Shown one piece after another: positions 7,237-44,977 of a stretch of 64,000 nucleotides of DNA. Below the pieces are notes generated by a model that was not told the origin of the DNA, did no database searches, and was given only the letters and a program-made list of their open reading frames with translations. The stretch's first letter is position 1, and each line of letters starts with the position of its first letter. The stretch covers positions 4,862 through 68,861 of the forward strand of contig CAZTXD010000002.1 in the NCBI GenBank assembly GCA_964617995.1, given 5' to 3'. Both the position numbers and the translations under genes were made by a program. The DNA is from an uncultured Acidimicrobiaceae bacterium (lineage in GTDB: Bacteria > Actinomycetota > Acidimicrobiia > Spongiisociales > ZC4RG35).

Positions 7237-8220
7237 ATGAATGCGGTCGAGGCCCACAACATCGTCAAGACGTTCGGTGATGTGGTCGCCCTCGACGGAG
7301 TCAGTGTCACCTTCGAAGAAGGAATCGTCTACGGGTTGCTGGGCCCAAACGGGGCGGGCAAGACCACTCTGATCAGGGTGCTGACGACGCTCCTCAAAGC
7401 AGACTCGGGGACGGCCAGGGTCGTCGGTGTCGACGTGGTCGCCGACCCGGTGGGGGTGCGTCACAAGATCGGGCTCGCCGGCCAATTCGCCGCGGTGGAC
7501 GACTTCCTCACCGGGAGGGAGAACGTGGAGATGGTCGGCCGCCTCTACAACCTGTCCAAGACGGACGCTGCGCGCCGGGCCGGGGAGGTCCTCGAGCGTA
7601 TCCATCTCATCGAATCCGCCGATCGAGCGGTGCGCACCTATTCCGGAGGCATGAGACGACGTCTCGACCTCGCCGCGTCCATGGTGGGCCGTCCCGAGGT
7701 CCTGTTTCTCGACGAGCCCACCACGGGTATCGATCCTGGCAGCCGGCTCGACCTGTGGGATCTGATCGAGGAGCTCGTCGATGCCGGAACCACTCTTCTC
7801 CTCACCACCCAGTACCTCGACGAGGCCGACCGACTTGCCGACCGCATCGGTGTCATCGATCGGGGGCGTCTCATCGACGAGGGCACATCCGACGAGCTGA
7901 AAGACCGGCTCGGTGGCAACGTCGTCGAGGTCCATGTCACCGGGGACGACCGGGCCACCGCGGCGGGAGCCCTCACAGCCGTCGCGGGCGGCGAGTTGAT
8001 TATCGAGAGTCACGCACTTGTCATCCCGGCCGTCGACGGAGCCCGGACACTGACCGCGGCAGTAAGGGCACTCGATGACGCGGGAATCGAGCTCCAGGAC
8101 ATCGGTCTACGTCGTCCCACCCTCGACGATGTCTTTCTGACTCTCACCGGGCACCGCGCGGAGGAAAGAGGCGACACCGGTGCCGGGGAAGCCCCCGGAC
8201 GCCGAGACCAACGGGTATGA
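7237..8220 (+). CDS. ABC transporter ATP-binding protein (DrrA-like, ABC-2 exporter)
   Basis: Walker [10 protein letters not shown], signature SGGMRRRL, Walker B LFLDEPT. Confidence 0.9.
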   Translation: MNAVEAHNIVKTFGDVVALDGVSVTFEEGIVYGLLGPNGAGKTTLIRVLTTLLKADSGTARVVGVDVVADPVGVRHKIGLAGQFAAVDDFLTGRENVEMVGRLYNLSKTDAARRAGEVLERIHLIESADRAVRTYSGGMRRRLDLAASMVGRPEVLFLDEPTTGIDPGSRLDLWDLIEELVDAGTTLLLTTQYLDEADRLADRIGVIDRGRLIDEGTSDELKDRLGGNVVEVHVTGDDRATAAGALTAVAGGELIIESHALVIPAVDGARTLTAAVRALDDAGIELQDIGLRRPTLDDVFLTLTGHRAEERGDTGAGEAPGRRDQRV

Positions 8221-27493: not shown

Positions 27494-28366
27494 TCAACCT
27501 CGCGAAAGGGGCGCCGGCTCGTCAAGGCGGGCGAGCTTGTGCGGGTTGCGGATCGCGTAGATGCGGGTGATCCGGCCGTTCTCGATGGCCAGGCTGACCG
27601 CGGTGTCCAGCACGCCGGCCTGGTCGATCCGCACCGCCGGGGCTCCGTTGAGCCACATGGTGGAGGCCACCGCGTCGGGCGCGACCCGTCTGAGGCCGGA
27701 GAGCGCCGTTGCCACCTGCTCCATGCCCTCGATGGGGCGCCGGAAGGCGGGCGCGAGACCGCCGCCGTCCGCGATTAGAACCACGTCCGGGGCCATCACA
27801 TCCATCAGGCCCTGCACATCACCGGAGGTGATCGCGGTCAGGAAATGCTCCACGACCTGCTGCTGCTCGGTCCGGCTGACCTCCATCCGCGGGCGTCGAG
27901 CGGCAACGTGGCCCCGCGCCCGATTGGCGATCTGTCGCACGGCTGCCGGCTTCTTGCCGACCGCCTCGGCGATCTCGTCGTAGGGCGTGTCGAAGACCTC
28001 GCGCAGCACGAACACCGCTCGCTCGGCCGGGCCGAGCGTCTCGAGCACGGTGAGCATCGCAATCGAGACGCTCTCCGCGAGCTCGACGTCCTCGGCGACG
28101 TCGGGGCTGGTCAGCAGCGGCTCCGGCAACCACTCTCCCACGTACTCCTCCCGCCGGCGGGAGAGCGTGCGTAGACGGTTGAGCGCCTGTCGGGTCACGA
28201 TCCGCACCAGGTACGCACGAGGGTCGCGCACCCCGGCGTGGTCGACGTCGGCCCACCGCAGCCAGGTCTCCTGCACGACGTCCTCGGCGTCGGCCGCCGA
28301 GCCGAGCATCGCGTAGGCGACCGTGAAGAGCAGGCCGCGGTGGGTGACGAACGGGTCGTCGCTCAT
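27494..28366 (-). CDS. ECF RNA polymerase sigma factor, SigJ-like with C-terminal SnoaL-like extension
   Basis: sigma2 'DAEDVVQETWLRW', sigma4 'YDEIAEAVGKKPAAVRQIANRARGHV', approx 110-aa C-terminal extension. Confidence 0.85.
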   Translation of the reverse strand: MSDDPFVTHRGLLFTVAYAMLGSAADAEDVVQETWLRWADVDHAGVRDPRAYLVRIVTRQALNRLRTLSRRREEYVGEWLPEPLLTSPDVAEDVELAESVSIAMLTVLETLGPAERAVFVLREVFDTPYDEIAEAVGKKPAAVRQIANRARGHVAARRPRMEVSRTEQQQVVEHFLTAITSGDVQGLMDVMAPDVVLIADGGGLAPAFRRPIEGMEQVATALSGLRRVAPDAVASTMWLNGAPAVRIDQAGVLDTAVSLAIENGRITRIYAIRNPHKLARLDEPAPLSRG

Positions 28367-28963
28367 CCTGAGGACGCTACCCCGTGCCGGGCGGTCGGCT
28401 CTGCCAACGGCTTCAGGTCACACGCCGCCGCGAAGCCGTCCGACTCGATTCCGAACGCCACGTTGGACCGCGCATAGAAGTTGGCCAGTGAAATGAACGC
28501 GGTCAGTTCGACCATCGCCGCCGCCCCGAGTTGCTCCAGCAGCCGGGCGGACACCACGTCGGTGACCGTGGGCGGCGTCTGGCTCATCGCTTCCGCGTAC
28601 CCCATCACTTCGCGCTCCAGCGGGGTGAAGACGTCCGACTCCCGCCAGCGGGGCACCTCGCGCGCTTTATCCAGGTCGAGGTCCTCGTTGTGGGCCTGGA
28701 AATAGCCGAAGTCGAGGCACCAGGTGCAGCCCACCAGCGACGCCACTGCCATGTGGGCGAACGACTTCAGGCTGGGGTCGCACGCCTCCCACTTGTGGGC
28801 CTTGCCGCTGATCGCGAAATAGCCCTTGAGCACAGCGCGGTTGTTCCAATACACCCCGAGGGGCGACGGCACCTCGCCGAGCAACTTCTTGCTGAACCGT
28901 TTCACCATTGCCCCGTAGACGCCGGTGATCTCTGTCTTTGGGATCCTCGTGCTGTTGGCCATG
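28363..28963 (-). CDS. Carboxymuconolactone decarboxylase (AhpD-like) family protein
   Basis: Start ATG (MANSTRIPK) preceded by GGAGG; 'GCTWCLDFG' CxxC-type AhpD-core motif; stop overlaps sigma-factor start. Confidence 0.7.
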
Positions 28964-29179
28964 TCGCCTCCTTGGGGCGATGGGTTCGTCATCCCTCTGA
29001 CATGAAGACACCGGACGGCACAGATTTGTGACAGATCGCCCACGTACCTGGACAATGCTGACCGGCACCGACAACGCCGAGGCGATCAGCCATGGCGTGT
29101 ACGACACCAAGCGGCCTCTCCTCGTCGCCCCTACGACGGGCGAGCGCCGTCGATTCCACCCCACTGGTCGAACAGATCG

Positions 29180-29953
29180 ATGATCGCCACGACGCTCCCA
29201 GGGAGAGTCCCACCGCAACCTCGACCTTCTTATCTTCGAAGTCAGCGGCGGCCGCATAGCATCCGGTCGGTGAGCGAGCGTATCGACCTCGGGGCGAGCT
29301 ATCGACGGGCCCATGAGACTGTGGCCGAGCTCGTCCGGACTCTGAGCCCCCAACAACTCCAGACCTCGGTCCCGGCATGTCCCGGATGGTCGGTTCATGA
29401 CGTCGTCTCGCATCTGACGGGAGTCGTCACCGATGTCGTCGGCGGCCGGCCGTATGTCGGGCATGACGAGCAGGCTGCCTCTCAGGTGGGGGAGCGAGCG
29501 GAGACCCCCACCTCGGTGGTGTTGCGGGAGTGGGAGCGATCCGCATCGCAGTTCGAGGTGGTTCTCAGCCGATCCGGGGTGTCTGACCTCACGCCGGTGT
29601 TGGACGTCGCCGTTCACGAGCAGGACATCCGCGGCGCCCTCGGCCTCCCTGGCAACCGAGACGGCGAGCTCATCCAACTGGCCGTCGAGCGTGCCGCTCA
29701 ACTCCTGCTGAGCAAGTTGGAGAGTGCCGGGCTGGACCCAGTCGTCATCATGGACGACGCCGGCTCAGTGGTCGCCGGCCACTCCGATGCGCCCGTGTCC
29801 ATTCGGATGTCACCCTTCGAGTACTTCAGAGCGGCTTACGGTCGTCGGAGCCGAGCCCAGATAGAGCGTCGCATCCATGGCACACGCGAGGCCGGCTTCT
29901 ACGTGCCCTTGCTCTGTGTCTCCGGGCCGGCGGAGGCTGACATCATCGAGTAG
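29180..29953 (+). CDS. Mycothiol-dependent maleylpyruvate isomerase N-terminal domain (DinB_2-like) family protein
   Basis: 'ETVAELVRTLSPQQLQTSVPACPGWSVHDVVSHLT' hallmark; true start probably internal (about 29270). Confidence 0.65.
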   Translation: MIATTLPGRVPPQPRPSYLRSQRRPHSIRSVSERIDLGASYRRAHETVAELVRTLSPQQLQTSVPACPGWSVHDVVSHLTGVVTDVVGGRPYVGHDEQAASQVGERAETPTSVVLREWERSASQFEVVLSRSGVSDLTPVLDVAVHEQDIRGALGLPGNRDGELIQLAVERAAQLLLSKLESAGLDPVVIMDDAGSVVAGHSDAPVSIRMSPFEYFRAAYGRRSRAQIERRIHGTREAGFYVPLLCVSGPAEADIIE

Positions 29954-30104: not shown

Positions 30105-30776
30105 TCAAGCCTCGGTTCGGATGGCGTCGAGCGCCTCGAGGACGAGATTGAGACCGAACGCGAACTCGGTGTCATAGTCGAAGACGGAGGTCGTTTCCTG
30201 CAGGGCGGCGAATTCGGCGAGATGGGAGTACTCATCGCTCTGGAAGTGTTCGAGGCGGTCTTCGGACGTCTCTCCGGGCCCGTTCGCGGCGTCGAAGGGC
30301 AGGCTCATCTCTTGGATGACATGACCGTAGACATAGCTGTCCAACACCCAGAAGGCGTGGGCGGCGGCCTCCACCGAGAAGCCACCTGCCCGCAGACTGG
30401 CGATGATGGCGTCGAGGTAGCGCAATACCGTCGGCCCGGTGGAGCCTCGGGACTCAAAAAGCCCGATCGCCCATGGATGGCGGCGCAACACCTGCCGTGC
30501 CGACACCGCCCGTTTTCGCATCGCCGTTTTCCAGTCGGACCCGGGTGTCGGGATCTCTATCTCCGTCACAACCAGGTCGACGATCCCGTCGAGGATCTCA
30601 TCCTTGTTGGCCACGTGTTTGTAGAGCGACATCGCCTCGACACCGAGCTCACGACCGAGCCGGCGCATGGTCAGGGAGTCGAGACCGCTTCGGTCGGCTA
30701 GGGCCACCGCGGCTCTCAGGACACGTTGTCTGGTCAACGGACGCCGGGGGACCGGGTTCTCCTCGTCGCGCTCCAT
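30105..30776 (-). CDS. TetR/AcrR family transcriptional regulator
   Basis: N-terminal HTH 'LTMRRLGRELGVEAMSLYKHVANKDEIL', TetR_C-type C-terminal domain. Confidence 0.85.
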   Translation of the reverse strand: MERDEENPVPRRPLTRQRVLRAAVALADRSGLDSLTMRRLGRELGVEAMSLYKHVANKDEILDGIVDLVVTEIEIPTPGSDWKTAMRKRAVSARQVLRRHPWAIGLFESRGSTGPTVLRYLDAIIASLRAGGFSVEAAAHAFWVLDSYVYGHVIQEMSLPFDAANGPGETSEDRLEHFQSDEYSHLAEFAALQETTSVFDYDTEFAFGLNLVLEALDAIRTEA

Positions 30777-30784
30777 CTTGACAG

Positions 30785-30816
30785 CTTACTAAGTACACCC
30801 TAGATTACTTAGTAAG
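30785..30816. promoter_or_regulatory. Perfect 11-bp inverted repeat (candidate TetR operator) in divergent promoter region
   Basis: CTTACTAAGTA-N10-TACTTAGTAAG between TetR (30776, minus) and membrane protein gene (30839, plus). Confidence 0.6.
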
Positions 30817-30838
30817 CCAACACGGAGACAGATGTGAC

Positions 30839-31354
30839 ATGTCCGCGAGGACGAACAATCCAAGAAAGCAGAGGGTACGAATGACCGCAGAAACGAAGTT
30901 CGACCCGTCCACCGTGAGCGTGAGGGTCAAAATCTCGGCGCTCTGGACGTCGATGCTGTTCGTCTTCGCCTACGTCGACCTCTTCAGCCTCTACCGACCC
31001 GACTTCCGGGCCGACATCGAGGCTGGCGAAATCAGTGGGTTCGCCGTCAACCAGGCGTTCCTTTTCGCGACCACCGCCTATGTTGTCATTCCCAGTCTCA
31101 TGGTGTTCTGCGCGCTCATCCTGCGACCACGAGTCAACCGAATCCTCAACGTCGCGCTGAGCATCATCTACGCGCTCACCATCATCGCCGGCGCGATCGG
31201 CGAGTGGAGCTACTACGTCTTCGGCAGCGCGACCGAGGTGGCCCTCCTCGCGGCCATCGCGTACTACGCCTGGACCTGGCCGAAAGAAACCCCATCAACC
31301 GCCACGACCGGACCAGAGCCGACCCCTCACCACATCCAACCCAGCGCTCCGTAG
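30839..31354 (+). CDS. Small membrane protein (DUF6326-like)
   Basis: 171 aa, four hydrophobic helices; divergent from TetR. Confidence 0.5.
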   Translation: MSARTNNPRKQRVRMTAETKFDPSTVSVRVKISALWTSMLFVFAYVDLFSLYRPDFRADIEAGEISGFAVNQAFLFATTAYVVIPSLMVFCALILRPRVNRILNVALSIIYALTIIAGAIGEWSYYVFGSATEVALLAAIAYYAWTWPKETPSTATTGPEPTPHHIQPSAP

Positions 31355-31540
31355 CGCACCAGCAGGCCGCCACCTTCGTCCGCCCCGACGCGCTGGTCCA
31401 ACGGTGCGAGTCGTGCAATCCCGGTCCGGTCACCGAAATCGAACGGGGCCGGTCGCGCCCTGGATCAGGCGGGCTCTCTTGCAGATGGCATCGCTTTCCC
31501 TGGTCAGCCAGTACCCCGGCCTGCTGATACGCTGCGCTGC

Positions 31541-32506
31541 ATGACAGACACCGTTGTGGTGATCGACTGGCTTCTCGACTCCGACCCTTCGATCAGGTGG
31601 CAGGTGATGCGCGACTTGCTCGACGCTCCGGAGTCGGAGTGGACGGCGGAACGAGCCAAGGTGGAGACCGACGGCTGGGGAGCCCGGCTCCTGTCCTACG
31701 AGGACGAGGACGGGCAATGGGCGGGTGGCGCCTTTCTCCCCAGAGATTTCGACGTCCGCGAGTGGCGCGAGGTCGGTCAGCCGTGGACGGCCACGACATA
31801 CTCGTTGTCGCAGCTCCGGGAGTTTGGTTTCGATCCCACGTCGGAGCGGGCCAAACGAGCTGTCGAATTGATCGGCGCCAACTCACGCTGGGATCACGAC
31901 GGCCAGCCCTTCTGGGAGGGGGAAGTCGAGGAGTGCATCAACGGCCGGACCGTTGCCGACGGCGCCTATTTCGGAGTCGACATTTCGTCCATTGTCGACA
32001 GGCTGATAGGCGAGCGTCTCGACGACGGCGGCTGGAACTGTGAGAGGATCAACGGCTCGGTCCGCTCGTCATTCGCCAGCACGATCAACGTGCTGGAAGG
32101 GCTCCTCGAATACGAGAGAGCCACCGGGGGCACGCCTGAATCCCGGGAGGCGCGCCAGTCGGGTGAGGAGTATCTCCTGGAGCGCAACCTCTTCCGCCGT
32201 CTCAGCACGGGTGAGCCGGCAGACGAGCGCTTTCTCCTGTTCCTGCATCCGAACCGCTGGCGCTACGACGTCCTCCGAGCACTGGACTACTTCCGGTCTG
32301 CCGCCATCCTGACCGGGGCCGCCCCCGACCCGCGGCTCGGCGAGGCTATCGACCACGTTCGTTCCAGACGATTGGAGGATGGCACCTGGCCTCTCGACTG
32401 GAGCCTGCCGGGGCGGGTGTGGTTCGATGTCGACGACGGGGAGGACCAGCCCTCCCGTTGGGTGACCTTTCGGGCGATGCGGGTGCTCAGATGGTGGGAG
32501 GGTTAG
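31541..32506 (+). CDS. Prenyltransferase/squalene-oxidase-repeat (terpene-cyclase-like alpha-alpha toroid) protein
   Basis: 321 aa with repeated QW-type motifs (DEDGQWAGG, DDGGWNCE, EDGTWPLDW). Confidence 0.55.
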   Translation: MTDTVVVIDWLLDSDPSIRWQVMRDLLDAPESEWTAERAKVETDGWGARLLSYEDEDGQWAGGAFLPRDFDVREWREVGQPWTATTYSLSQLREFGFDPTSERAKRAVELIGANSRWDHDGQPFWEGEVEECINGRTVADGAYFGVDISSIVDRLIGERLDDGGWNCERINGSVRSSFASTINVLEGLLEYERATGGTPESREARQSGEEYLLERNLFRRLSTGEPADERFLLFLHPNRWRYDVLRALDYFRSAAILTGAAPDPRLGEAIDHVRSRRLEDGTWPLDWSLPGRVWFDVDDGEDQPSRWVTFRAMRVLRWWEG

Positions 32507-32718
32507 CGCCGATCGGGAAACTCCCACCAGGTCCACCAACGTTCCCTCTGGTGTGAGATCTCACCTGCTCGTACCGGTGGCGAGGAACGGTGGGTCACCT
32601 CGCCGGTGGCGAGGTCGATGACAAGAAAGGTCTCCTCGGGCATGGCCGGCTCACAGGGGCCTTTACGACTTTCAGTTCGAGCAAGTCCCGGTAACGCTCC
32701 CCCTCGGGGTTTTCACCT

Positions 32719-34662
32719 ATGGCGGCGCTTCATCGGCGGCGACAGACTGCCGATATGGGGCAACCCGAAGAGATGACCGTGATGGCGCAACAACCGATCT
32801 ACATCACCGGAGTCGGCGCTTACCTGCCCGGCGAGCCGGTCGACAACGACCACGTCGAGGCACGTCTGGGTGCCCTGACTCAGGGTTCCGACCGGCTACG
32901 GACCCGGATGCTGGAGGCGAACGGCATCATCACCCGCCACTACGCCCTCGACGGGAACGGGAACACCACGATGCTCAACGAGGAGCTGGCAGCGCGGGCC
33001 ATCCGCGCGGCAGTCGAGCATCGCGGCATCGGGCTGGAGGAGGTTGGGATGCTGGCCGTCGGCACCACCCAGGGTGACCTGCCGGTCCCCGGATTCGCCT
33101 CGATGGTCCATGGGCGGCTGGGAGGAGGCCCCAAGGAGATCCTGTCGGCCGGGGGCGTGTGCTGCTCGGGCGTCGCCGCCCTCTCAGCCGCCGGGGACGC
33201 CGTCCGGCTGGGGCGTCACCGGACGGCGGTGGCGGCCGGGTCGGAGCTGGTGTCCCGGGCGTTGCGAGCCTCGAGGATGGAGCAGGCGATGAACCGGGAC
33301 AGGCGGTCGGCGTTCGGAGCGGAGTTCCTCCGCTGGATGCTGTCGGACGGCGCCGGGGCGATGGTCGTCGAGGACCGGCCCCGCGCCGACGGCCCGTCCC
33401 TACGCATCGACTGGTCGCTCCTCGAGTCGCACGCCCACCGGTTCCCCGTGTGCATGTACGCCGGCGCCGTCGATGCCGACTCGGTGCGGGCGGGAAGCAC
33501 GTGGCAGGACATGTCCACGGCGTCGGAGGCCGATGCCGGGGCGCTGCTCAACCTGCGCCAGGATGTCGCCCTCCTCGACGGCGTGGTGGCCTTGGGGGTG
33601 GAGCGCTACATCGAGCTGGTCCGGGACGGTCACCTCGACCCGGACGGCATCGACCACCTCCTCTGCCATTACAGCTCGGAGCATTTCCGAGGCGACATCG
33701 TCAAGCTGATGTCGGAGGCGGGCCTGATGATCCCCGAGGATCGATGGTTCACCAACCTCCACACCAAGGGCAACACCGGTGCAGCCAGCATCTACATCAT
33801 GCTGGATGAGGCGCTCAGGACCGGCCGGTTCGCCGAGGGCGACCGGATCCTGCTGATGGTGCCCGAGTCGGGGAGGTTCTCTGTCTCGTTCGTCCAGCTC
33901 ACCTGCGTGGGTCCCGATCGGCCCGACCAGGTCGAAACCGGACCCCGAGTGGCTGTCGCCGACCCGGCCCCGATCCATCCCGTCACCTCTCCTTCGGGCT
34001 CCCCCAACGAGTGGCTGCTGGCGGAGCTGGGGCTGGTGTGGGCCCGCTTCGAGCAACGCTTGAGCCGGGTCCCGATGGTGAGCCGCATCGAGAACCGCGC
34101 CGCCACCCGGGAGGACTACCTCCGTCTCCTCTTGAACATGCGCCAGCAGGTGATGGAGGGCGCTCGCTGGATAACCCGGGCGGCCTCCAACCTCACGGTC
34201 GAGCACACCGATCTGCGTGCCGAGTTCATCCAGCACGCCGCCGAGGAGCAACGCGACTTCCGCATGCTCGAGAACGACTACGTGGCCTGCGGAGGGGACC
34301 GGGAGGAGATCATCTCGGGGGAGAAGAACGTGGGCTCGGAGGCGCTGTCGGCGTTCATGTTCCAGCAGGCGGACCAGGTCAACCCGCTCGACCTGCTGGG
34401 GGGGATGTACATCATCGAGGGCCTGGGGGCCAACAAGGCCGACCGCTGGGTCGACCTCCTCCGCGAGCAGCTCGACCTGAGTGACGACCAGGTGACGTTC
34501 CTGCGCTACCACGGGGGCGCCGACCAGGCGCACACCGAGGAGATGTTCGAGGTACTTCGCTCCGACATCATCACGTGGGAGGTTGCCCGCTCGATAGTCA
34601 AGACGGCCAAGGTCGTCGCCCGCCTCTACGCCCTCCAGCTGGAGGAGATCGACCATGTCTGA
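32719..34662 (+). CDS. 3-oxoacyl-ACP synthase III (FabH-like) fused to C-terminal heme-oxygenase-like (TenA/PqqC/HDO-fold) domain
   Basis: N-terminal ~380 aa: FabH-like triad context GGVCCSGVAAL (Cys), LLCHYSSEH (His), NTGAASI (Asn); C-terminal ~240 aa with ExxH/DxxH pairs (EFIQHAAEE, DQAHTEE) like diiron HDO enzymes; start probably internal (MTVMAQQPIYITGVG). Confidence 0.7.
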   Translation: MAALHRRRQTADMGQPEEMTVMAQQPIYITGVGAYLPGEPVDNDHVEARLGALTQGSDRLRTRMLEANGIITRHYALDGNGNTTMLNEELAARAIRAAVEHRGIGLEEVGMLAVGTTQGDLPVPGFASMVHGRLGGGPKEILSAGGVCCSGVAALSAAGDAVRLGRHRTAVAAGSELVSRALRASRMEQAMNRDRRSAFGAEFLRWMLSDGAGAMVVEDRPRADGPSLRIDWSLLESHAHRFPVCMYAGAVDADSVRAGSTWQDMSTASEADAGALLNLRQDVALLDGVVALGVERYIELVRDGHLDPDGIDHLLCHYSSEHFRGDIVKLMSEAGLMIPEDRWFTNLHTKGNTGAASIYIMLDEALRTGRFAEGDRILLMVPESGRFSVSFVQLTCVGPDRPDQVETGPRVAVADPAPIHPVTSPSGSPNEWLLAELGLVWARFEQRLSRVPMVSRIENRAATREDYLRLLLNMRQQVMEGARWITRAASNLTVEHTDLRAEFIQHAAEEQRDFRMLENDYVACGGDREEIISGEKNVGSEALSAFMFQQADQVNPLDLLGGMYIIEGLGANKADRWVDLLREQLDLSDDQVTFLRYHGGADQAHTEEMFEVLRSDIITWEVARSIVKTAKVVARLYALQLEEIDHV

Positions 34663-35500
34663 CAGCTCACTTGTAGCCTTCGTCGACCGTCCCGGGCCGT
34701 CTATCTGGGATGCCCTTGCCGGGGATCCCACCCACCACCTCAGCCGGCATTCGTTGTCGTTGCTGGAACGCGACGCCAACCGTTGGTCCGCCCGCTACCT
34801 GCGACCTCCCGCCCGGCTGATATCGAGGGTCCTCGTGGGGATCATCACCCTCCTCAAGCGGCTCCTGCCCGGGGACATGTCGTCACACCGCACGCTCGAC
34901 AGGCTCGGCGTCTGGTTCATGTCTAGATTCGTTTCGGAGGAGGGCGGGGAACTGCTCATGCGCCATTTCATCCTCGAGACCAACGTGCTGGCCTTCATCG
35001 CTCGCAACGCCGGTCTGGAGGAGCCGACCCTGCGACCTACCACCCTCGGTCAGCTCGGCGACAACGCGGTGGTGGTCCACGACGTCAACGTGTACGAGCT
35101 GCTCAGCGGGTTGGCCAACAAGCCGCTGCCGAGACCGGAGGACAGGACGTCGCCGCTCGATTTCACGATGCTCGATGTGACCCCCGTCGACACCACCGGC
35201 AAGCGGCGATGGATGCGTCTCGACCTGGAGACCGCCCTGGCGTGCATGAATGTGGCGTTCGCCCTCTTCACTACTGCCGAGGAATACCGGCGGGCGGTCC
35301 ACTCGCTGCAACTCGACGAGTCGTTGCTCGGGTGCCTTGCCGAGCTCACCGGCGATGAGCTGTTCCGAATCTGGAGGCCGGCCGGCTACGTGGCGATCGT
35401 GCGGACCAACCGCGACGTGCCCCGTGACCTGTTCGCCCACGCCATCGTCCACGAGTACGCCCATGCCCGCCTCGAGTGGCATGCCCGGAGGGCCGGTTAG
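34655..35500 (+). CDS. Hypothetical protein, translationally coupled to FabH-HDO fusion
   Basis: ATGTCTGA overlap (start 34655, upstream stop 34662); 281 aa, no recognised motif. Confidence 0.55.
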   Translation: MSDSSLVAFVDRPGPSIWDALAGDPTHHLSRHSLSLLERDANRWSARYLRPPARLISRVLVGIITLLKRLLPGDMSSHRTLDRLGVWFMSRFVSEEGGELLMRHFILETNVLAFIARNAGLEEPTLRPTTLGQLGDNAVVVHDVNVYELLSGLANKPLPRPEDRTSPLDFTMLDVTPVDTTGKRRWMRLDLETALACMNVAFALFTTAEEYRRAVHSLQLDESLLGCLAELTGDELFRIWRPAGYVAIVRTNRDVPRDLFAHAIVHEYAHARLEWHARRAG

Positions 35501-35812
35501 AGGCGTGCTCCGCGGGGAGGCTGTCCGTGTCGCCCAATTCCGGGCACCCCACGAGGAGAGCGCCGATACCACAACGGCCTGGGGTGGTCTCGAGGAGCAC
35601 CTCGACCCGGACAGATGGTCGTCGATAAGCTGAACGCCCAATCTCGAGCCGTACAACAGGTGGCACGCGGGTGACGAATGACGCGGAGATCCATGTATTA
35701 GGCGAGGCTTCCGCGGGCAGGATCGATGAGATGTCCATCGTATCATCGCACGGGATTGCGATTGGGGCGGACCGGCGGTCTCGATCCCGAAGTTCACCGA
35801 GGAGGTGTCTCG

Positions 35813-36475
35813 ATGAGTGAGAGAAGAACCACGGCCCGGGTGTTCCACGAAGCGGACGGGGTCGATGACTGGCGGGTCCTCTATTGGGGTGCGTACGCCT
35901 ACTACCGCACCGGGTCGTTCTCCGAGGGGGCGCGCTTCGTCGCCGCGGTCGCCGAGATTGCTGAGACAACAGGGCATTTCCCCGACGTCGACCTGCGCCC
36001 GGAGGGGGTGACGGTCCGGACGTTCTCACGCGAGGACGGATCGCTGAGCGAGCGCGACATCGACTTGGCTACGCGCATTTCGGCGGTGGCTCGGGAAAAC
36101 GGACTCGAGTCCGATCCATCGCAGGTGCAGGCCGTCGGCATCGCTGTGGCACACGACGCCGGTGTCGACGTGCGGCCCTTCTGGGCGGCGGCGTTCGGCT
36201 ATCGACACCTCGGAGCGGAGGACGCGATCGACCCGCACCGGCGCAACCCGCATCTCTGGTTCCACGAGCTCGACCCCCCGAAGCCCAGAAGGGGTCGCGT
36301 CCACATAGACGTCAGCGTTCCGGCCGATCAGGCGAAGGTGCGGGTAGCGGCTGCGCTCGCCGCGGGCGGACGAATCGTCGACGACTCCCACGTGCCCGGA
36401 TGGTGGACGCTCGTCTCTCCCGAGAACCACGGAGTCGACATAGCAGCGTGGCCGGACTTCGAGGACGAAGGCTGA
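35813..36475 (+). CDS. Pterin-4a-carbinolamine dehydratase-like / VOC fusion protein (intact paralogue of 6151-6804)
   Basis: ATG 35813 after GGAGG; PCD-like 'TGHFPDVDLRPEGVTVRT', C-terminal VOC-like 'RVHIDVSVPADQAKVRVAAALAAGGRIVDD'. Confidence 0.65.
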   Translation: MSERRTTARVFHEADGVDDWRVLYWGAYAYYRTGSFSEGARFVAAVAEIAETTGHFPDVDLRPEGVTVRTFSREDGSLSERDIDLATRISAVARENGLESDPSQVQAVGIAVAHDAGVDVRPFWAAAFGYRHLGAEDAIDPHRRNPHLWFHELDPPKPRRGRVHIDVSVPADQAKVRVAAALAAGGRIVDDSHVPGWWTLVSPENHGVDIAAWPDFEDEG

Positions 36476-37498: not shown

Positions 37499-40230
37499 TC
37501 ACCACTGCCGCAGCAGCCAGAGCTCCGGCTCCCAGTCGCCCGAGGCGATGTCGGCGAAGAGCGTGACCGCCTGGGTCAGAGAATTCTCGGCCTCCTCCTT
37601 CCGTCCCGACTGGTGGTGGAGGTCAGCAAGGTGATTGAGGAGTGCCGCCTGATGGTGGCGGTATCCGGCCCGGTCGGCGATGGCCACCGCCTCGGTGACC
37701 ATCTCGACGGCCTCATCCAGCTCTCCGGCATCAGCGAGCAGATGTGCCTTGTTGTTGAGAGCTGCGATCCGGGCCGGTTCCGTGGAGCCGGCCATCTCCA
37801 GGGCATCGTCGACATGCTCTGTCGCCTTCTCCGGGTCGGGGTCGACGACGGCCAAGATGTTGTAGGCGCGGGCGACGAGCACGGGGTCTCGTTTCGCCTC
37901 TGCGGCTTCGAGAGCGGTCGTGGCGAAGGAGATGGCGGCTTCGGCGTCGCCCGTCCGGTGCTTGAGCAGCGCCCAATCGGCATACAGATCCGCCGGCTCA
38001 GGGTGGTCACGGCGAGCACGGGTGAAGCTCTCCTCGGCGAGTTCGAACCTACCGAGGATGCGGTAGAGGTCGCCGATGCGGTGTTCGACCAGGGCAAGAT
38101 CCGCGCCGGTGAAGTGTGAGGCGGCGGCGCGCAGTTCGCGCTTGGCCACCTGATAGTCGCCTCGGGCCATCGCTAGCTCACCGAGGGCAAGGCGCAGCCG
38201 TCCCATGTCGGGATGGCCGAGGGCGATCGCCATCTCATAGGAGGTGACCGCCTCGTCGTGGGCGTAGACAGCGCGGGCCAGATCTCCCGCCGACATGTAC
38301 CACGAAGCTGCGTCCTCACTGCCGGCTGCGTGCAGCTGGGCGGCGGCGGCCGTGGCCAGACGTGCATCGGACCGGACTCTGGGTTTCGCCAGGAGGGCCT
38401 CGGCGGCACGCCTGTGCAGGAGACGACGTCGGATCAACGACGTGGACTCGTAGCACATCGTCTCCAGGGCATCGAGGGTGAATCCGAGCTTGCCGTCTTC
38501 GTGTTCCCGCAGAAGGCCCGCTGAGATGAGCTCTTCGACCGCTTCGACTATCTCGTCTTCGGTGCGTCCGCTGGTGTCGCGCAGGAGCTGGGCGTCGCAG
38601 ATCCCGTCGAGGACTGCCGCCGCCGCCATTATCTGATGGGCGAGATCGGAGAGACGTCGACGTTTCGAGTCCATGTACTTCTGAACGCTCTCCGCGTCGG
38701 GGTTCACCACTCCGTCCGAGTCGAGTGCTTTCTTGACCAGGAGCGGTATGCCGCCGGTGGCGGCGATGATGGCTTCAACGTCGGTCTTCGGGTAGTCGTC
38801 GTGCAGGCTGGACGGGGTGAGAGGGTCGAGGACGAGCATCTCGTCGGGCTCTGTTGCGATCTCCCTGACGGCGGGATGCAGCGAGCCCACGTCTCGGGTG
38901 GCGACGACGAGAAGGAGAGGCAGGTTCCCAGCGCGTCGATGCACATAGGACACGAGGTGGGCCGACGCCGCGTCCATCCACTGGGCATCATCGATGGTCA
39001 CCACCACCGGCCCATTGGCAGTGGCCGGCTCCATCAACTCGAGGAAGGCCTCACGGAGACGGAGCTCTCCGAGGCTGCCCGATTCGCCTTCGGCCGCACC
39101 AGGCGCCAGCTTGGGATCGAGTCGGGTGAGCTCGGTGAGCGCCCACTCGGGGACGTTCAACTCGCCGCCGTTGTTGCTCGACACGAAGCCATCCAACAGC
39201 TGGGTGGCGACCCCGTATGGGAGTTGCGAGTCGGGACTGAAGGCCCTGCCTGAGACGATGGAGACTCCGAGATCTCGGGAGAACTGCACGAGGTACTCGA
39301 TCAATCGGGTCTTTCCCATCCACGAAGCTCCGGAAATCACCAAGAGCTTCCCCGGCGGGGAGATCGTATCGACGAGTCGGCGCAGCGTCTCCATCGCCTC
39401 CTCACGGCCGATCATCCCTGCCTCGACCGGCGACTCGGCGAGGCGGTGGGCCCTGACCGGCTTCCTCACTCCCGGGGCCGGCGGCAGATCCTCGTCGAGG
39501 ATGGCCTCGAAGAGCTCGGTGGTCTCATCGAGTGGGGGGACACCGAGCTCGCGATCGAGGACCGCCACACAATCGCGATAGGCCTGGATCGATCCCGGTC
39601 GATCACCGGCCCAGGCACAGAGAAGCATCAACAACCGGTGAGCGGGCTCGTGCAGCTCGTCGAGACGGATCCACCGAATCGCCGCAGCAGTCGCCTCGCC
39701 GTAGTCGCCGGAGCCAGCATTCCCCATCGCAAGACGTTGGAACACGTCTCCGGCCTCGAGACGGAGTGACTCTGTGACCATTCGGGCCCAGTCCTCGAAG
39801 TCCGGTGCCTCTCTCACCGAGAAGGCGCCGAGAAAGTCACCTCGGTAGAGGTCGGCCGCTTTACGGAGATGGGGAAGACAAGCCGGGCACACGTCGTGGA
39901 CGTCGTGATCATGTTGCCCGGTGGCCTCGACTTCGGTCCGGAACTGGTGGACGTCACAGATGAACCCGTCCTCGATCGTCACCCGGTTCCGATCGGCGTT
40001 GATCCAGTCCGCCCCGATCCCGCTGCGGAGAGCAGAGAGCGTCCGGCGCAAGGTGGCCCTCGACCTCTCCGGGGATGAATCGGCCCAGAAGAGCCCGGCG
40101 AGAGCATCACGGTCGGCACTGCGCTCGATGGCTAGATAGGCGAGCATGGCGATGGCCTTGCGCGTGTCCACCTCGACGTACGCCGAGTCGGCGGTCACCT
40201 CCGGCGACCCGAACAACCGTATTTCGAGCA
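37499..40230 (-). CDS. SARP/AfsR-family regulator (OmpR-type DNA-binding + BTAD + NB-ARC ATPase + TPR)
   Basis: Start placed at MLEIRLFGSPEV (ATG 40230); P-loop GASWMGKT; C-terminal TPR-like repeats. Confidence 0.85.
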
Positions 40231-40360
40231 TGCGATGACTTTCCCATTCGAAAATAGTCGATGCGTTACGGCAAGCGGATCTCGGCCACTTCGTGACGGG
40301 GCCAGCGACTGAGGCCATTTCCGTTGCGCTTACGTAACGAGGTCATGGCATCGTTGCGCC

Positions 40361-41548
40361 GTGATCGATCCCAGGAGAGTGGTTAGTCGGCGCGTAGCCC
40401 TCCACACCAGAGTCGTTTTGATCGCGGCGTCGACGGCCTTGATCGCGTATCTCCTCGGAGGGGCGCTCGGATGGTGGTCCGCGCTGGAGGGCGTGGAATC
40501 GTTGGTGATCATTGGGGCGTCGCTGATCTTCGTCGCTGTCGGTTCCTTGATCATCGGTAAGGCGGACTCGAACCGGGTTGGCTGGGTATTCGCCCTGGTC
40601 GGGATATCCATCCTGTTGTCCGGCGTGACCGGAGGGCTCGCCGACCGGGGCCTCCTCGTGTTCGACGCCATCGGTGGGGCGTTCTGGCTCTCCTGGCTCG
40701 CCGCGGTCGGGTTGGTGGTTCTCTGGTATCCCACCGGAAGACCAGCCAGTTCGCGATGGATCTGGGTCCAGTGGCTGGGATTTGTGTTGATCGGGCTCAC
40801 CTTCGTTCTCTATGTGTTTGCTGAAGAACTGTGCTCGGAATTCTCGGAGCCCCAAGGGTGCATCGGCTACGTGGCGAATCCGATCGGTGTCCCCGCTGTC
40901 CCCAATCCGGAGTTCGGCTGGATATCAGGCCCGCTCTTCGCTGGCGTCGCTGTGTTCCTCCTGTCATCGTTGGCGTCCCTGGTAACGAGATTTCGCCGAG
41001 CCAGGGGGGTGGAACGTCTTCAGCTCAAGTGGTTCCTGCTCGCCTGCACGGTCTTCGCAGTCGCGTTCGCGGGGACGATCTCCTACGAAGCGTGGTCCGG
41101 TCGGGCTTCCCCCTTTTGGCTCGGCATTCTCTTCCAAGTGGCGATCCTGGCGATGCCGGTGACAGCGACCCTGGCCATTCTCCGCTATCGGCTCTACGAG
41201 ATCGACCGGATCATCTCCCGGACGGTGTCGTATGCGCTGGTGGTGGGTCTGCTCGGGTTGCTGGTGGCCGGTGTGGCCGCGGTCGCCGGCTCGCAGTTCG
41301 AGACACCTTGGGTGGTGGCGGCCACCACGCTGGGGATGGCGGCGTTGTTCAACCCGGTGCGGAGGAGAATGCAGATCTGGGTGGATCGTCGTTTCAACCG
41401 GTCTCGCTATGACGCCCAGCGGGTGATGGACGAGTTCGCCGGTTCGTTGCGTGAGCGCGTGGACGCCGATGAGGTGGTTGAGGGATGGCTCGGGGTGGTC
41501 GACTCCACGATGCAACCTGCGGCTGTGGGTGTGTGGGTGAGGCAGTGA
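40361..41548 (+). CDS. Polytopic membrane protein, paralogue 1 of five-member tandem family (conserved C-terminal module)
   Basis: GTG 40361; FPTGR motif (YPTGRP), RLQLKW, C-terminal ILRYRLYEIDRIISRTVSYALV...VDRRFNRSRYDAQRVMDEFAGSLRERVD...QPAAVGVWVRQ. Confidence 0.8.
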   Translation: MIDPRRVVSRRVALHTRVVLIAASTALIAYLLGGALGWWSALEGVESLVIIGASLIFVAVGSLIIGKADSNRVGWVFALVGISILLSGVTGGLADRGLLVFDAIGGAFWLSWLAAVGLVVLWYPTGRPASSRWIWVQWLGFVLIGLTFVLYVFAEELCSEFSEPQGCIGYVANPIGVPAVPNPEFGWISGPLFAGVAVFLLSSLASLVTRFRRARGVERLQLKWFLLACTVFAVAFAGTISYEAWSGRASPFWLGILFQVAILAMPVTATLAILRYRLYEIDRIISRTVSYALVVGLLGLLVAGVAAVAGSQFETPWVVAATTLGMAALFNPVRRRMQIWVDRRFNRSRYDAQRVMDEFAGSLRERVDADEVVEGWLGVVDSTMQPAAVGVWVRQ

Positions 41549-42708
41549 TGGCGACGGACTCGATGCGTCGCCTCGGAGGAATCGCCATGGCTGTCTCGGC
41601 TCTTCTGCTGGGTGGGGTGAGTTTCGTATCGGCCCCGGAAGAACCGGTGGCGGTGGTGGTACAGCAGTTGGTGTTTGCCCTGGTCACGATGGGTGTGGGG
41701 CTGCTCCTCGTGTTGAGGCGGCCCGGGCACAGGATTGGCTTCGTGATGCTGGCCCTTGGCCTTTCCTTTTCGATGATGGGCATGGGTCAGGCACTGACAC
41801 GCGTCTCTCACCAGGTCGGAGACATGAGCCGAGCAGTCATTTGGGCTCAGTTCGAAGGAGTCGGTTGGGTCTTCTTCATCCTGACACTGTTCAACCTACT
41901 CCCTCTGTGGTTTCCCACGGGGAGGACGGCCAACGTCTTCGGGCAGTGGGTCCTCAGAGTCGCGCTGGCCGTGGCCATCGTTGGGGTGTTGGGCACTGTC
42001 TTTGCCGAAAGAACTTGCGTCTCTTGGCCGGCTGGGGGTGTCGGTGACGACTGTCTTGAGTTCGCCGCCAGCTCCTGGGGGTTCCTGGAGTACTCTGTCG
42101 GTGAGGTTGCCGGTCAGGCCGTCTTGCTGCTCACGGGCCTGATATCGCTCCTCACCCTCGGATATCGCTTCGTCCGCGCCAGGGGAACGGAGCGACAGCA
42201 GTTGAAATGGTTCGCTTTCGGATTCGCTTTGTTCGTCGTGGCCCTGGGGGCATCGCTGGTTCTGGGTACCAACATGGACTTGGTCATCTGGACCGCCATC
42301 GGTGTGGTGCCAGCTTCGATAGCGCTGGCGGTGCTTCGCTATCGCCTCTACGAGATCGACCGGATCGTTTCGAGGACGGTGTCGTACGCCCTGGTCGCAG
42401 GTCTGCTCGGGTTGCTGGTGGCAGCGGTGGCCGCGGTCGCCGGGTCGCAGTTCGAGACCCCTTGGGTGGTGGCGGCGACCACTCTGGCGGTGGCTGCAAT
42501 GTTCAACCCGCTTCGGCGGAGGGTTCAGGGATGGGTGGACCGTCGTTTCAACCGGTCTCGATACGACGCCCAGCGGGTGATGGATGACTTCGTCGGGTCG
42601 TTGCGGGATCGCGTCGACGCCGACGAGGTGGTCGAGGGCTGGCTCGGGGTCGTCGATTCCACGATGCAACCGGCAGCCGTGGGCGTGTGGGTGAAGGTAC
42701 CGGGGTGA
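41548..42708 (+). CDS. Polytopic membrane protein, paralogue 2
   Basis: ATG overlaps upstream TGA (TGATG); same motif set (FPTGR, RQQLKW, RYRLYEIDRIVSRT, DRRFNRSRYDAQRVMDDF, GVWVK). Confidence 0.8.
   Translation: MATDSMRRLGGIAMAVSALLLGGVSFVSAPEEPVAVVVQQLVFALVTMGVGLLLVLRRPGHRIGFVMLALGLSFSMMGMGQALTRVSHQVGDMSRAVIWAQFEGVGWVFFILTLFNLLPLWFPTGRTANVFGQWVLRVALAVAIVGVLGTVFAERTCVSWPAGGVGDDCLEFAASSWGFLEYSVGEVAGQAVLLLTGLISLLTLGYRFVRARGTERQQLKWFAFGFALFVVALGASLVLGTNMDLVIWTAIGVVPASIALAVLRYRLYEIDRIVSRTVSYALVAGLLGLLVAAVAAVAGSQFETPWVVAATTLAVAAMFNPLRRRVQGWVDRRFNRSRYDAQRVMDDFVGSLRDRVDADEVVEGWLGVVDSTMQPAAVGVWVKVPG
42463..42584 (+). repeat. ~122-bp tract identical to 44729-44850 (paralogue 2 vs paralogue 4)
   Basis: TGGGTGGTGGCGGCGACCACTCTGGCGGTGGCTGCAATGTTCAACCCGCTTCGGCGGAGGGTTCAGGGATGGGTGGACCGTCGTTTCAACCGGTCTCGATACGACGCCCAGCGGGTGATGGA present in both copies. 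Confidence 0.85.
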
Positions 42709-43844
42709 GCAGACACCAGCGGGAGACCGTGAATATGGCCCTACTCGTGATGGCGGTGGTCCTGGCGATGCTCGGTGTGTTGGCCGGTGTCTTTTTCGGC
42801 GGGCTGGAGCCGGGCGACGAGCTGTGGCCACTCGGATGGGTGATGTGGGCACCCGTCGGCGCTCTCATCCTCTGGAGACGGCCCAGCAACGGAGTCGGAA
42901 CGATCATGCTGGCCATCGGCCTGTGTTGGGGGCTCGGCTTCCTTGCAGTTGCGTTGGCCGAAAGCCCGGCTCAGTTAGGCGTCCGGGTGTGGGCCGAGCT
43001 GGTCAGTCTCCTGCTCGGTGTGCTTCCCTGGCTCGGGATCATCTGGCTCCTTCTCGTCTTCCCCACAGGACGGCTTCACGGGCGTCTGGAGCGGATCACA
43101 GGGCTCGGGTTGTTGGCGCTCGCCATCCTCGGGGTCGTCTCCTTTGCGAGCAGCCCTGAACCCATGGAATCGACGGGTGTGCAGAGTCCGCTCGCCGTAC
43201 CGTGGATGGAGTCCTTGACCACCTGGTTCATCAGCGAGAGCGGGTTTCTCGTCGTGATCGTCGTCATAGCGGCTTCCATCGTCTCGCTGGCTCTTCGCTG
43301 GCACGCGAGCAGCGGGATCGAAAGACACCAGTACCGATGGCTCCTCCTCGGGGCACTCTTGTTCGTCTCGATCCTCGGCATTGGTCAGGTGGTCCCCGAA
43401 GACAGCCTCGCCGGGTTCACCTGGGTCGTGGCCGGGGCCGCCATACCGGTGTCTGTGGGCGTCGCCGTGTCTCGATACCGCCTGTTCGAGATCGATCGGA
43501 TCATCTCTCGGACGGTGTCGTATGCGTCGGTGGTTGCGGTGCTGGCTGCCGCGGTCGCCGGCGTAGCTGCCCTGGCGGGCTCCCAGTTCCAGGAGCCCTG
43601 GGTGGTGGCCGCCACCACGCTCGGGGTGGCGGCCACGTTCAATCCGGTGCGGAAGCGAGTTCAGAGCATCGTCGATCGTCGATTCAATCGATCGAAGTAC
43701 GACGCCGAGCGGGTGGTCGCCGAGTTCGCCGGGTCGTTGCGTGACCGTGTCGACACCGACGAAGTGGTCGAGGGCTGGCTCGGTGTTGTCGACTCGACGA
43801 TGGAACCGGCAGCCGTCGGCGTGTGGCTGAGGGGGGCACGATGA
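42705..43844 (+). CDS. Polytopic membrane protein, paralogue 3
   Basis: GTG overlapping upstream stop (GTGA) or ATG 42735; motifs FPTGR, RHQYRW, RYRLFEIDRIISRT, DRRFNRSKYDAERVVAEF, GVWLR. Confidence 0.8.
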   Translation: MSRHQRETVNMALLVMAVVLAMLGVLAGVFFGGLEPGDELWPLGWVMWAPVGALILWRRPSNGVGTIMLAIGLCWGLGFLAVALAESPAQLGVRVWAELVSLLLGVLPWLGIIWLLLVFPTGRLHGRLERITGLGLLALAILGVVSFASSPEPMESTGVQSPLAVPWMESLTTWFISESGFLVVIVVIAASIVSLALRWHASSGIERHQYRWLLLGALLFVSILGIGQVVPEDSLAGFTWVVAGAAIPVSVGVAVSRYRLFEIDRIISRTVSYASVVAVLAAAVAGVAALAGSQFQEPWVVAATTLGVAATFNPVRKRVQSIVDRRFNRSKYDAERVVAEFAGSLRDRVDTDEVVEGWLGVVDSTMEPAAVGVWLRGAR

Positions 43845-44977
43845 ATCGATCCCCGATGGCGTCGATCGGATTGGCCCTGACCTTCGCGATGGTCGCTGGA
43901 ATGGTCACCGTCGCTGCGGTCGGTGGCCAACTGGTGGCAACGTACCTGGTGGCGGGGCTGCTGATGTCGATCGTCGGTTGGCGAATACTGATATCGCATC
44001 CCCGTCATGGCGTGGGTCGCCTGCTGATGGTGGCCGGAGTCTCGGGCACCGCCCTCTCGTTCTGCATGCCGTACGCGCAGCTCTCCTTGTCGAGTGGGCG
44101 GCTTCCGGGGGAGTGGGTAGCAGCATGGGCCGGTTCGTGGATCTGGGCGGTCCAACTCGCATGCCTGCCGGCCTTGCTATTCGTCTATCCGTCGGGACGG
44201 GCATTGGGGAGGTGGCGATGGGTCTTCAGGGTGTGGGTGGCGGCTGTGGCTGCGGTCATCTTGACCGGCGCCGTGCAGCTGGTTGGGACCAGCGCCGGTG
44301 AGATGGTCGCCCAAGCCCGGCCCGGTGCTCCCGAGCTTCCCGAATATCGGTTTCTCAACGACGCCGCGCCATTGCTGATCATGTTCCTGGGCTTTCCCCT
44401 TGGGGGCGTTTCCTTCTCGCGACGTTGGGTAGGCGGGGGTCTGGAGACTCGTCACCAGATGAAGTGGCTGGCTCTCGGCCCCGTGGCGATGGCGATGGCC
44501 CTGGTGACGATGGAGGTGCTGGACGCACCGCCGGTGGTGTCCGGCGTGGCCTGGGCCACCGCACTGACCGTGTTCCCCCTTGCGATCGGTATGGCGATCC
44601 TCCGCTATCGCCTCTACGACATCGACCGGATCATCTCGAGGACGGTCTCGTATGCCCTGGTCGTTGGACTGCTCGCCCTGGCCGTAGCAGCGGTGGCGGC
44701 CGTCGCCGGGTCGCAGTTCGAGACTCCCTGGGTGGTGGCGGCGACCACTCTGGCGGTGGCTGCAATGTTCAACCCGCTTCGGCGGAGGGTTCAGGGATGG
44801 GTGGACCGTCGTTTCAACCGGTCTCGATACGACGCCCAGCGGGTGATGGACGACTTCGCCGGCTCGCTCCGGGACCCGGTCGATGCTGATGGTGTGATCG
44901 ACGGCTGGGTGTGGGTAGTGAGGGGCACGATGGAGCCGGGGGCCATCGGAGTCTGGGTCAGGGACCACCCCGAATGA
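43841..44977 (+). CDS. Polytopic membrane protein, paralogue 4
   Basis: ATGA overlap; motifs YPSGR, RHQMKW, RYRLYDIDRIISRT, DRRFNRSRYDAQRVMDDF, GVWVRD. Confidence 0.8.
   Translation: MNRSPMASIGLALTFAMVAGMVTVAAVGGQLVATYLVAGLLMSIVGWRILISHPRHGVGRLLMVAGVSGTALSFCMPYAQLSLSSGRLPGEWVAAWAGSWIWAVQLACLPALLFVYPSGRALGRWRWVFRVWVAAVAAVILTGAVQLVGTSAGEMVAQARPGAPELPEYRFLNDAAPLLIMFLGFPLGGVSFSRRWVGGGLETRHQMKWLALGPVAMAMALVTMEVLDAPPVVSGVAWATALTVFPLAIGMAILRYRLYDIDRIISRTVSYALVVGLLALAVAAVAAVAGSQFETPWVVAATTLAVAAMFNPLRRRVQGWVDRRFNRSRYDAQRVMDDFAGSLRDPVDADGVIDGWVWVVRGTMEPGAIGVWVRDHPE

Follow-up and report, generated by a model that had tools for sequence, protein, structure and literature searches.

Positions 30105–36475 of a 64,000-nucleotide stretch from an uncultured Acidimicrobiaceae bacterium (contig CAZTXD010000002.1; the whole stretch is called the window) hold six genes that a first-pass annotation had read as one cryptic biosynthetic-like locus behind a TetR operator. 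We find instead four units lying side by side: a TetR/DUF6326 pair, a gene for a QW-motif protein, a cassette formed by a ketosynthase–HDO fusion gene (HDO being a heme-oxygenase-like diiron oxidase domain) and a DUF6999 gene, and a PCD/VOC gene. A biosynthetic-like unit is thus present, but with two genes in place of six. The cassette is conserved, as judged from its gene order across genomes, and unstudied, and it consists of three genes where ketosynthase and HDO are unfused. That the four units are independent, that the cassette alone is a multi-gene biosynthetic unit and that its product would be of the dialkylresorcinol type is, taken together, the reading that we regard as on balance probable.

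Comparative synteny reduces six genes to a two-gene cassette

Gene content was established from the listing of open reading frames (ORFs) and from Pfam and NCBIfam scans of the window proteins (Table 1). The six genes do not share one strand as had been described, because the TetR gene is on the minus strand and the other five are on the plus strand. A scan of 185,579 species genomes with a DUF6999 alignment gave 50 loci, made up of about 31 Acidimicrobiia-type bins together with cultured Micromonosporaceae (Luedemannella, Longispora, Plantactinospora and Dactylosporangium), Trebonia and Streptosporangiaceae. With metagenome contigs added, 54 cassette loci were searched by tblastn with every window protein, and neighbouring genes were scored within ±10 kb. 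Ketosynthase, HDO and DUF6999 were contiguous in all 54. The TetR, DUF6326, QW and PCD/VOC genes were found at none of them (0/54). The genes flanking the interval in the window were likewise missing. The only exceptions among all these genes were weak matches: one to TetR, generic and at 33% identity, and two partial ones at 24–27% to the flanking BTAD regulator. Flanks of the nearest relatives (L003–L005 and L139–L141; 79–88% identity) differed both from the window and among themselves.

The reverse comparison gave the same picture. Neither the fusion nor DUF6999 occurred at any of 80 metagenome loci carrying a DUF6326 homologue. A QW gene directly downstream of DUF6326 was found at none of the 80, the sole case of proximity being one locus (L137) where a QW-like match of 48% identity lies on the other strand, some 2.5 kb upstream. 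The QW protein itself was seen in three contexts (Rhizobium and two metagenomes) that had nothing in common. Since TetR, DUF6326, QW and PCD/VOC never accompany the cassette, the six-gene cluster is unsupported. Co-conservation in relatives, on which the first-pass annotation had staked its cluster, was lacking for four of the six genes, and the combination of acyl, isoprenoid-like and oxidative functions is a product of adjacency alone.

A single TetR-gated, operon-like biosynthetic cluster combining these three chemistries is accordingly a reading to which we give very little credence. It can draw on five same-strand genes lying downstream of a real, promoter-overlapping TetR operator, with no intrinsic terminator predicted between them. 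It is opposed by the two synteny counts; by intergenic gaps of 186 bp (DUF6326/QW), 275 bp (QW/cassette) and 225 bp (DUF6999/PCD–VOC); by a conserved 5′ element that the cassette has of its own; by the lack of any operator half-site elsewhere in the window; and by a QW protein with no demonstrated terpenoid fold or family.

The fusion joins a StlD/DarB-type ketosynthase to an HDO domain with a complete ligand set

The fusion had been annotated as FabH–HDO. A fusion does exist, but its ketosynthase is of the StlD/DarB type, scoring 382 bits against the StlD/DarB model NF005293 of NCBIfam (cut-off 450) and 90 bits against FabH models. The score against the DarB model NF053539 was 332 bits (cut-off 550). 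Comparison with the StlD structure 5GK0 aligned residues 5–376, the full length of the domain, at E 1e-75 and about 45% identity. Lying far above FabH and below the curated cut-offs, the domain represents a related but distinct subfamily of StlD/DarB. Residue conservation was read from an alignment of 42 fusion proteins. The Cys127/His296/Asn331 catalytic triad was invariant (42/42), and Glu155, which aligns with StlD Glu154, was Glu in 41 sequences and Asp in one. Column conservation fell to 0.40–0.51 in the linker (residues ~377–415), compared with 0.6–0.9 in the flanking domains.

The HDO domain matched PF14518 with 46.4 bits (cut-off 28.9). Six residues, H485, E489, E546, H577, D581 and H584, were invariant in all 42 fusions, the last three being spaced H577-x3-D581-x2-H584. 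These residues fit the HDO scheme of six ligands, in which core helix 3 bears HxxxDxxH (PMC13133933). Ligands were assigned to helices by alignment with the structure 3DDE only, which places His and Glu on helix one, Glu on helix two and HxxxDxxH on helix three, a layout in common with HDOs. A complete ligand set likens the domain to UndA, BesC and other PF14518 enzymes (SznF, RohS and CADD); unlike these, it is fused to a ketosynthase and its first-helix ligands are ordered H-x3-E. The nearest solved structure was 3DDE, whose function is unknown, and it alone was found; no characterised HDO was matched in the sequence and profile searches with the domain. Position 459 was always acidic (33 Glu and 9 Asp).

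DUF6999 is coupled to the fusion and probably binds metal

The protein of 281 residues that had been described as unknown, with an ATG overlapping the stop codon of the fusion, belongs to DUF6999 (237.7 bits against PF22523, cut-off 27), and the overlap ATGTCTGA was confirmed. The family is small: of 1.84 billion representatives, those that belong to it make up 229 clusters at 50% identity. Fusion stop and DUF6999 start overlapped in 50 of 51 loci, by 8 nt in 39, 4 nt in eight and 11 nt in three, and a GGAG lies within the conserved ...LQLEEID C-terminus of the fusion. Together, the conserved overlap and the GGAG indicate obligatory translational coupling.

A structural model of DUF6999 was all-alpha (pLDDT 79, pTM 0.81), with many invariant His, Glu and Asp residues spaced i, i+4 on helices that probably constitute a metal site. 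No significant match to a solved structure was obtained by sequence or profile search or by Foldseek search of the model. The HDO PolF is among the best-ranked rows of that search, at an E value of about 1 and a TM score of 0.12 that make the match meaningless. Two candidate assignments were rejected. Profile–profile comparison gave a divergent HDO a probability of 0.5%, and an HD-domain protein, to which an H...HD...D pattern is suggestive, had no support from Pfam at E≤10 or from Foldseek. Literature searches on DUF6999, on ketosynthase–HDO fusions and on PF14518 or DarB with diiron found no prior work on the cassette.

Unfused relatives occur in Gammaproteobacteria and Cyanobacteria

Hundreds of close homologues of the fusion were found, nearly all in Acidimicrobiia metagenome bins, and the same holds for DUF6999. 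A tblastn search of plasmids located further DUF6999 homologues in Pseudoalteromonas sp. THAF3 and Nostoc flagelliforme. The Pseudoalteromonas plasmid (L142, 5534–10642) carries separate adjacent genes for a ketosynthase (46% identity), an HDO (47%) and a DUF6999 protein (29%), in the same gene order and with the same 8-nt overlap of HDO and DUF6999; the ketosynthase is again of the StlD/DarB type. Its flanks encode a His-rich membrane protein of 185 residues and a hypothetical protein of 634 residues. The Nostoc plasmid (L143, 5828–8432) has the same order in a partial, unannotated and decayed-looking copy, which adjoins a cytochrome P450 gene. The actinobacterial fusion has therefore merged two genes that lie side by side in other lineages, strong evidence that both serve one pathway.

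The cassette has its own upstream element and, in most Acidimicrobiia, a kinase/regulator pair

The window, L003, L140 and L141 all have different genes further upstream but share a conserved stretch of about 60 nt ahead of the ATG at 32782. The start of the longest ORF (647 residues) falls inside this element, so the true start is probably 32782, in agreement with a database protein of 626 residues and with the alignment to relatives. The biosynthetic unit thus does not stand behind the TetR operator, as had been supposed: that operator is conserved with the TetR/DUF6326 pair, and the cassette has a 5′ element of its own.

Elsewhere in Acidimicrobiia the element consists of (A)TCGGGG-N4-CCCCGAT and, 20 nt further on (three variable bases and a 17-nt spacer), CCGAT(C/G)CTG. 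The window carries a variant of this two-box motif in a single copy. Across 935 kb of loci the motif occurred on the coding strand only and upstream of the fusion, save for copies at an Acyl_transf_3 gene and in L014. In six distinct loci the motif, also written CCCGAT-N20-CCGATCCTG, has a second copy that directly precedes the Acyl_transf_3 gene, and L014 contains a duplicate. Written as GGG-N-CCCGAT(A/G)NN-N17-CCGAT(C/G)CTG, the motif is found at 7932–7975 and 12667–12710 of L001, and also in L012, L017, L019, L021, L053 and L014. Its presence before both the ketosynthase–HDO gene and the Acyl_transf_3 gene suggests a small shared regulon. No match to the element was found in Rfam. Variation in the 5′ arm of the palindrome is not compensated in the other arm, which favours a DNA site over an RNA hairpin, and the element is probably a promoter or regulator-binding site. 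The Micromonosporaceae and Trebonia loci (L035–L052) have a different motif, a TGAGTA-N4-TACTCA palindrome with a downstream CTGAGT half-site, about 40–110 nt upstream of the fusion start.

Clustering of neighbouring ORFs across 52 loci identified only DUF6999, a kinase/regulator pair and the Acyl_transf_3 gene as conserved neighbours; no DarA/StlC-like or acyl carrier protein (ACP) gene was among them. The pair consists of a histidine kinase of ~380 residues, with an N-terminus that we read from the sequence as multi-transmembrane, and a NarL/LuxR-type response regulator. It lies directly downstream of DUF6999 in most Acidimicrobiia loci with room for it (L001 10863–12658 and equivalent positions in ~25 loci), in an operonic arrangement (in L001 the start overlaps the DUF6999 stop) or a convergent one. 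Trebonia loci have a 30–40% identical pair at the same position. In the window and its closest relatives tblastn did not find the pair, the best match in the window being a weak, generic regulator at 33%.

DesK/DesR is a membrane-sensing two-component system, and sensing of dialkylresorcinols and cyclohexanediones by the LuxR solo PauR offers a further analogy. A lipid-modifying gene is under DesK/DesR control, and similarly, in most Acidimicrobiia, lipid-type biosynthetic genes are flanked by a NarL/LuxR-type regulator and a multi-transmembrane kinase that has no extracellular domain; by contrast, the window lacks the association. The link suggests that the cassette product is a membrane lipid or signal controlled or sensed by the pair.

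The missing kinase and regulator, together with an inverted repeat in the 5′ element that is imperfect compared with L140, raise the question of whether the window copy is a silent or decaying remnant. We consider this very unlikely. Both reading frames are intact, no catalytic or ligand residue has been lost, and the coupling overlap is kept. Moreover, the sub-clade without kinase and regulator retains 79–88% identity and the 5′ element, which indicates purifying selection.

A decarboxylating aromatase is proposed for the fused HDO

DarB/StlD enzymes convert β-ketoacyl and 2-enoyl thioesters into carboxy-cyclohexanediones (carboxy-CHDs), decarboxylation accompanies the aromatisation by DarA/StlC, and aromatase-less DarB homologues are widespread, with products unknown (PMC6836626; bioRxiv 2022.10.20.513026). 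In substrate-triggered HDOs (UndA, BesC), which include oxidative decarboxylases, the substrate carboxylate serves as a ligand (PMC13133933). On the strength of DarB/StlD chemistry and of these carboxylate-binding decarboxylases, we propose the fused HDO as a decarboxylating aromatase and the cassette as a DarB/StlD-type pathway variant whose product is probably a phenolic lipid. The ketosynthase would join β-ketoacyl and 2-enoyl thioesters drawn from fatty-acid metabolism, through Michael addition and Claisen cyclisation, into a carboxy-dialkylcyclohexanedione. The HDO domain would bind the carboxylate of this product and aromatise the ring by O2-dependent oxidative decarboxylation, yielding a phenolic lipid of the dialkylresorcinol type and replacing the unrelated DarA/StlC aromatases of known pathways. 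DUF6999 would be made in a fixed ratio by virtue of the translational coupling. It would probably be a helical partner that binds metal and either acts as a tailoring enzyme or assists the oxidase with a cofactor or with electrons.

The closest known systems, DarAB(C) and StlCDE, come from Pseudomonas, Chitinophaga and Photorhabdus and make dialkylresorcinols and stilbenes. The cassette resembles them in its full-length StlD homologue with conserved active-site residues and in encoding an oxidative step beside the ketosynthase. It differs in having no DarA/StlC aromatase or ACP gene as a conserved neighbour, in the fusion of the HDO and the translationally coupled DUF6999, in scores below the family cut-offs, and in its hosts, which are Actinomycetota with the unfused form in Gammaproteobacteria and Cyanobacteria. 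Like the cyanobacterial brt cluster (BrtCD), it includes no dedicated fatty-acid machinery.

It is possible, if doubtful, that the cassette, though real, has a product that is no resorcinol. What the ketosynthase makes would then remain a cyclohexanedione or represent another kind of head-to-head condensate; the HDO would hydroxylate, desaturate, cleave a C–C bond or carry out an olefin-forming decarboxylation; and DUF6999 would add a metal-dependent step. Such an outcome would fit the ketosynthase scores below the curated cut-offs, the great variety of HDO reactions, the likeness of the acidic residue 459 to the seventh ligand of substrate-independent HDOs, the many invariant His, Glu and Asp residues of DUF6999, and the possibility that DarB homologues without DarA react differently (PMC6836626). 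A resorcinol is favoured over it by the ~45% full-length identity to StlD with an invariant triad and Glu155 in 41 of 42 sequences, by the tendency of fusions to link consecutive steps, and by the simplicity of the chemistry, in that oxidative decarboxylation of a carboxy-CHD is the simplest step that requires an oxidase and no other conserved candidate for it lies nearby.

Several points weigh against the proposal of a dialkylresorcinol-making cassette within four independent units. The ketosynthase scores below both curated cut-offs (382 versus 450 and 332 versus 550 bits), and DarA-less DarB homologues may not yield carboxy-CHDs (PMC6836626). The HDO domain is remote from every characterised HDO, and its acidic residue 459 could be the counterpart of SznF E189, the 'seventh ligand' typical of substrate-independent N-oxygenases and not of decarboxylases. 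DUF6999 is without detectable relatives by profile or fold search. A product or activity is known for no cassette member, and no paper on DUF6999 or on ketosynthase–HDO fusions was found. In this organism, the 5′ element is a degraded form of the palindrome and the kinase/regulator pair is missing, which makes expression uncertain here, and read-through co-transcription with the upstream genes may take place.

The remaining units of the interval and their surroundings

The TetR protein has the DNA-binding and ligand domains of its family and a cognate operator, a palindrome that lies in the divergent promoter of its gene and recurs in relatives. The inverted repeat is perfect, as had been noted, with arms of 12 nt, not 11. 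It occurs once in the window, with no match expected in shuffled sequence, and no further half-site was found in the 64 kb. The divergent small membrane protein of the first-pass annotation was confirmed as a DUF6326 member, with about four hydrophobic helices by our reading of the sequence. A TetR homologue was divergently adjacent to DUF6326 in 16 of the 52 loci with enough upstream sequence for a strict count, and in ~20 of 80 when shorter and partial contigs were included; these homologues are 47–79% identical to the window TetR. Most other DUF6326 homologues at the 80 loci are without this TetR. The motif TTGACA-(A/G)GCTTACTAAGTAA-N4-8-TTACTTAGTAAGC is present in the tetR–DUF6326 intergenic region of 18 of 20 TetR-adjacent relatives. 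The operator is therefore genuine and part of a self-contained repressor/membrane-protein module, and the DUF6326 gene is its likely target. As in TetR/TetA-type modules, a TetR_N/TetR_C_1 repressor diverges from a membrane-protein gene and a palindromic operator overlaps the promoter; unlike in those modules, the partner is a DUF6326 protein of 171 residues and not an MFS pump.

The QW protein does contain the motifs for which it had been called terpene-cyclase-like (DEDGQWAGG, DDGGWNCE and EDGTWPLDW), but scans of Pfam and NCBIfam assigned it to no family, even at E≤10. Its homologues number more than 8000, some of them labelled 'squalene cyclase' in their sources. The top 120 are 83–88% identical across phyla, spanning Acidimicrobiia, Euzebyales, Phytoactinopolyspora, Rhizobium and Ensifer, a curious degree of cross-phylum conservation. 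Homologues at 52–69% identity occur on plasmids and chromosomes of Pararhizobium, Nonomuraea and Mycolicibacterium. The AlphaFold model was poor (pLDDT 58), the alignment being too shallow because all its sequences are 83–88% identical. The only fold matches of this low-confidence model were non-significant ones to alpha/alpha-toroids (GH76, alpha2-macroglobulin and oxidosqualene cyclase; E 0.1–1). The QW protein is thus a stand-alone gene outside the cassette that carries QW-like motifs, its terpene-cyclase-like fold being unproven.

The PCD-like/VOC fusion was correctly recognised. Its Pterin_4a domain matched PF01329 with 49.2 bits (cut-off 26), and the best NCBIfam equivalog scored 48.7 against a cut-off of 80. 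The gene is an unrelated neighbour, and its first domain, above the Pfam cut-off and below that of the equivalog, is PCD-like.

Upstream of the interval, 27494–29953 encodes an ECF-type sigma factor whose C-terminal domain is SnoaL_2, a protein resembling CMD/AhpD, and a mycothiol-dependent member of the MDMPI family. In other loci, none of the three is tied to the cassette. Downstream, the BTAD/AAA/TPR regulator was rejected as a cluster regulator, as it is not conserved near the cassette in relatives. Divergent from it are five tandem ORFs with 33–56% mutual identity, multi-transmembrane and sharing a conserved C-terminal tail, for which Pfam gave no match. The AT skew of their region is strongly negative.

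Table 1. Positions of genes and sequence features in the window
Feature	Positions	Strand	Remarks
TetR-family repressor, 223 aa	30105–30776	minus	TetR_N and TetR_C_1 domains (Pfam)
TTGACA-N17-TAGATT promoter-like site	30778–30806		overlapped by TetR operator
TetR operator, perfect inverted repeat GCTTACTAAGTA-N10-TACTTAGTAAGC	30784–30817		12 nt per arm
DUF6326 small membrane protein, 171 aa	30839–31354	plus	PF19851, E 2.4e-10
QW-motif protein, 321 aa, stand-alone	31541–32506	plus	no family match
Conserved non-coding 5′ element of cassette, TCGGGGTTTTCACCTATGGCG...CTTCATC...ACTGCCGA	32704–32760	plus	
Ketosynthase–HDO fusion, longest ORF 647 aa	32719–34662	plus	likely start 32782, 626 aa
Ketosynthase domain of fusion, residues 1–376	32782–33909	plus	StlD/DarB type
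Pro/Ala-rich linker of fusion, residues ~377–415	33910–34026	plus	weakly conserved
HDO domain of fusion, residues ~416–626, and stop codon	34027–34662	plus	PF14518
DUF6999 protein, 281 aa	34655–35500	plus	PF22523, E 1.7e-70
Overlap of fusion stop and DUF6999 ATG, ATGTCTGA	34655–34662		
Pterin_4a (PCD-like) and Glyoxalase_6 fusion	35726–36475	plus	Pfam E 5.9e-13 and 1.9e-12
BTAD-AAA-TPR (SARP/AfsR-like) regulator	37499–40318	minus	
Five tandem paralogous ORFs, ~390 aa each	40361–46119	plus	

Implications

Same-strand adjacency behind a good operator was misleading here, and comparative synteny cut the cluster to two genes. The cassette that is left brings together a condensing enzyme of the DarB/StlD type, a diiron oxidase and a protein family not yet characterised, and it extends over three phyla and hundreds of metagenomic Acidimicrobiia. 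Aromatase-less DarB homologues are a recognised open question (PMC6836626), to which the cassette architecture gives a concrete and testable answer. Cultured carriers include Longispora albida DSM 44784, Dactylosporangium spp., Plantactinospora, Luedemannella, Trebonia kvetii and Pseudoalteromonas sp. THAF3. Should the proposed mechanism hold, it would provide a first function for DUF6999 and add a reaction type to the HDO superfamily.

A bolder version, which we put forward as speculation and think improbable, is that the two genes by themselves make up a complete route to oxidised head-to-head lipids of a new class. In this version the HDO would replace DarA/StlC, DUF6999 would be a metalloenzyme of new fold or a helper of the HDO, and the product would be the cue for, or the output of, the Acidimicrobiia kinase/regulator pair. 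If true, this would reveal, in a soil lineage that is abundant and mostly uncultured, a circuit for lipid signalling or membrane adaptation that had gone unrecognised.

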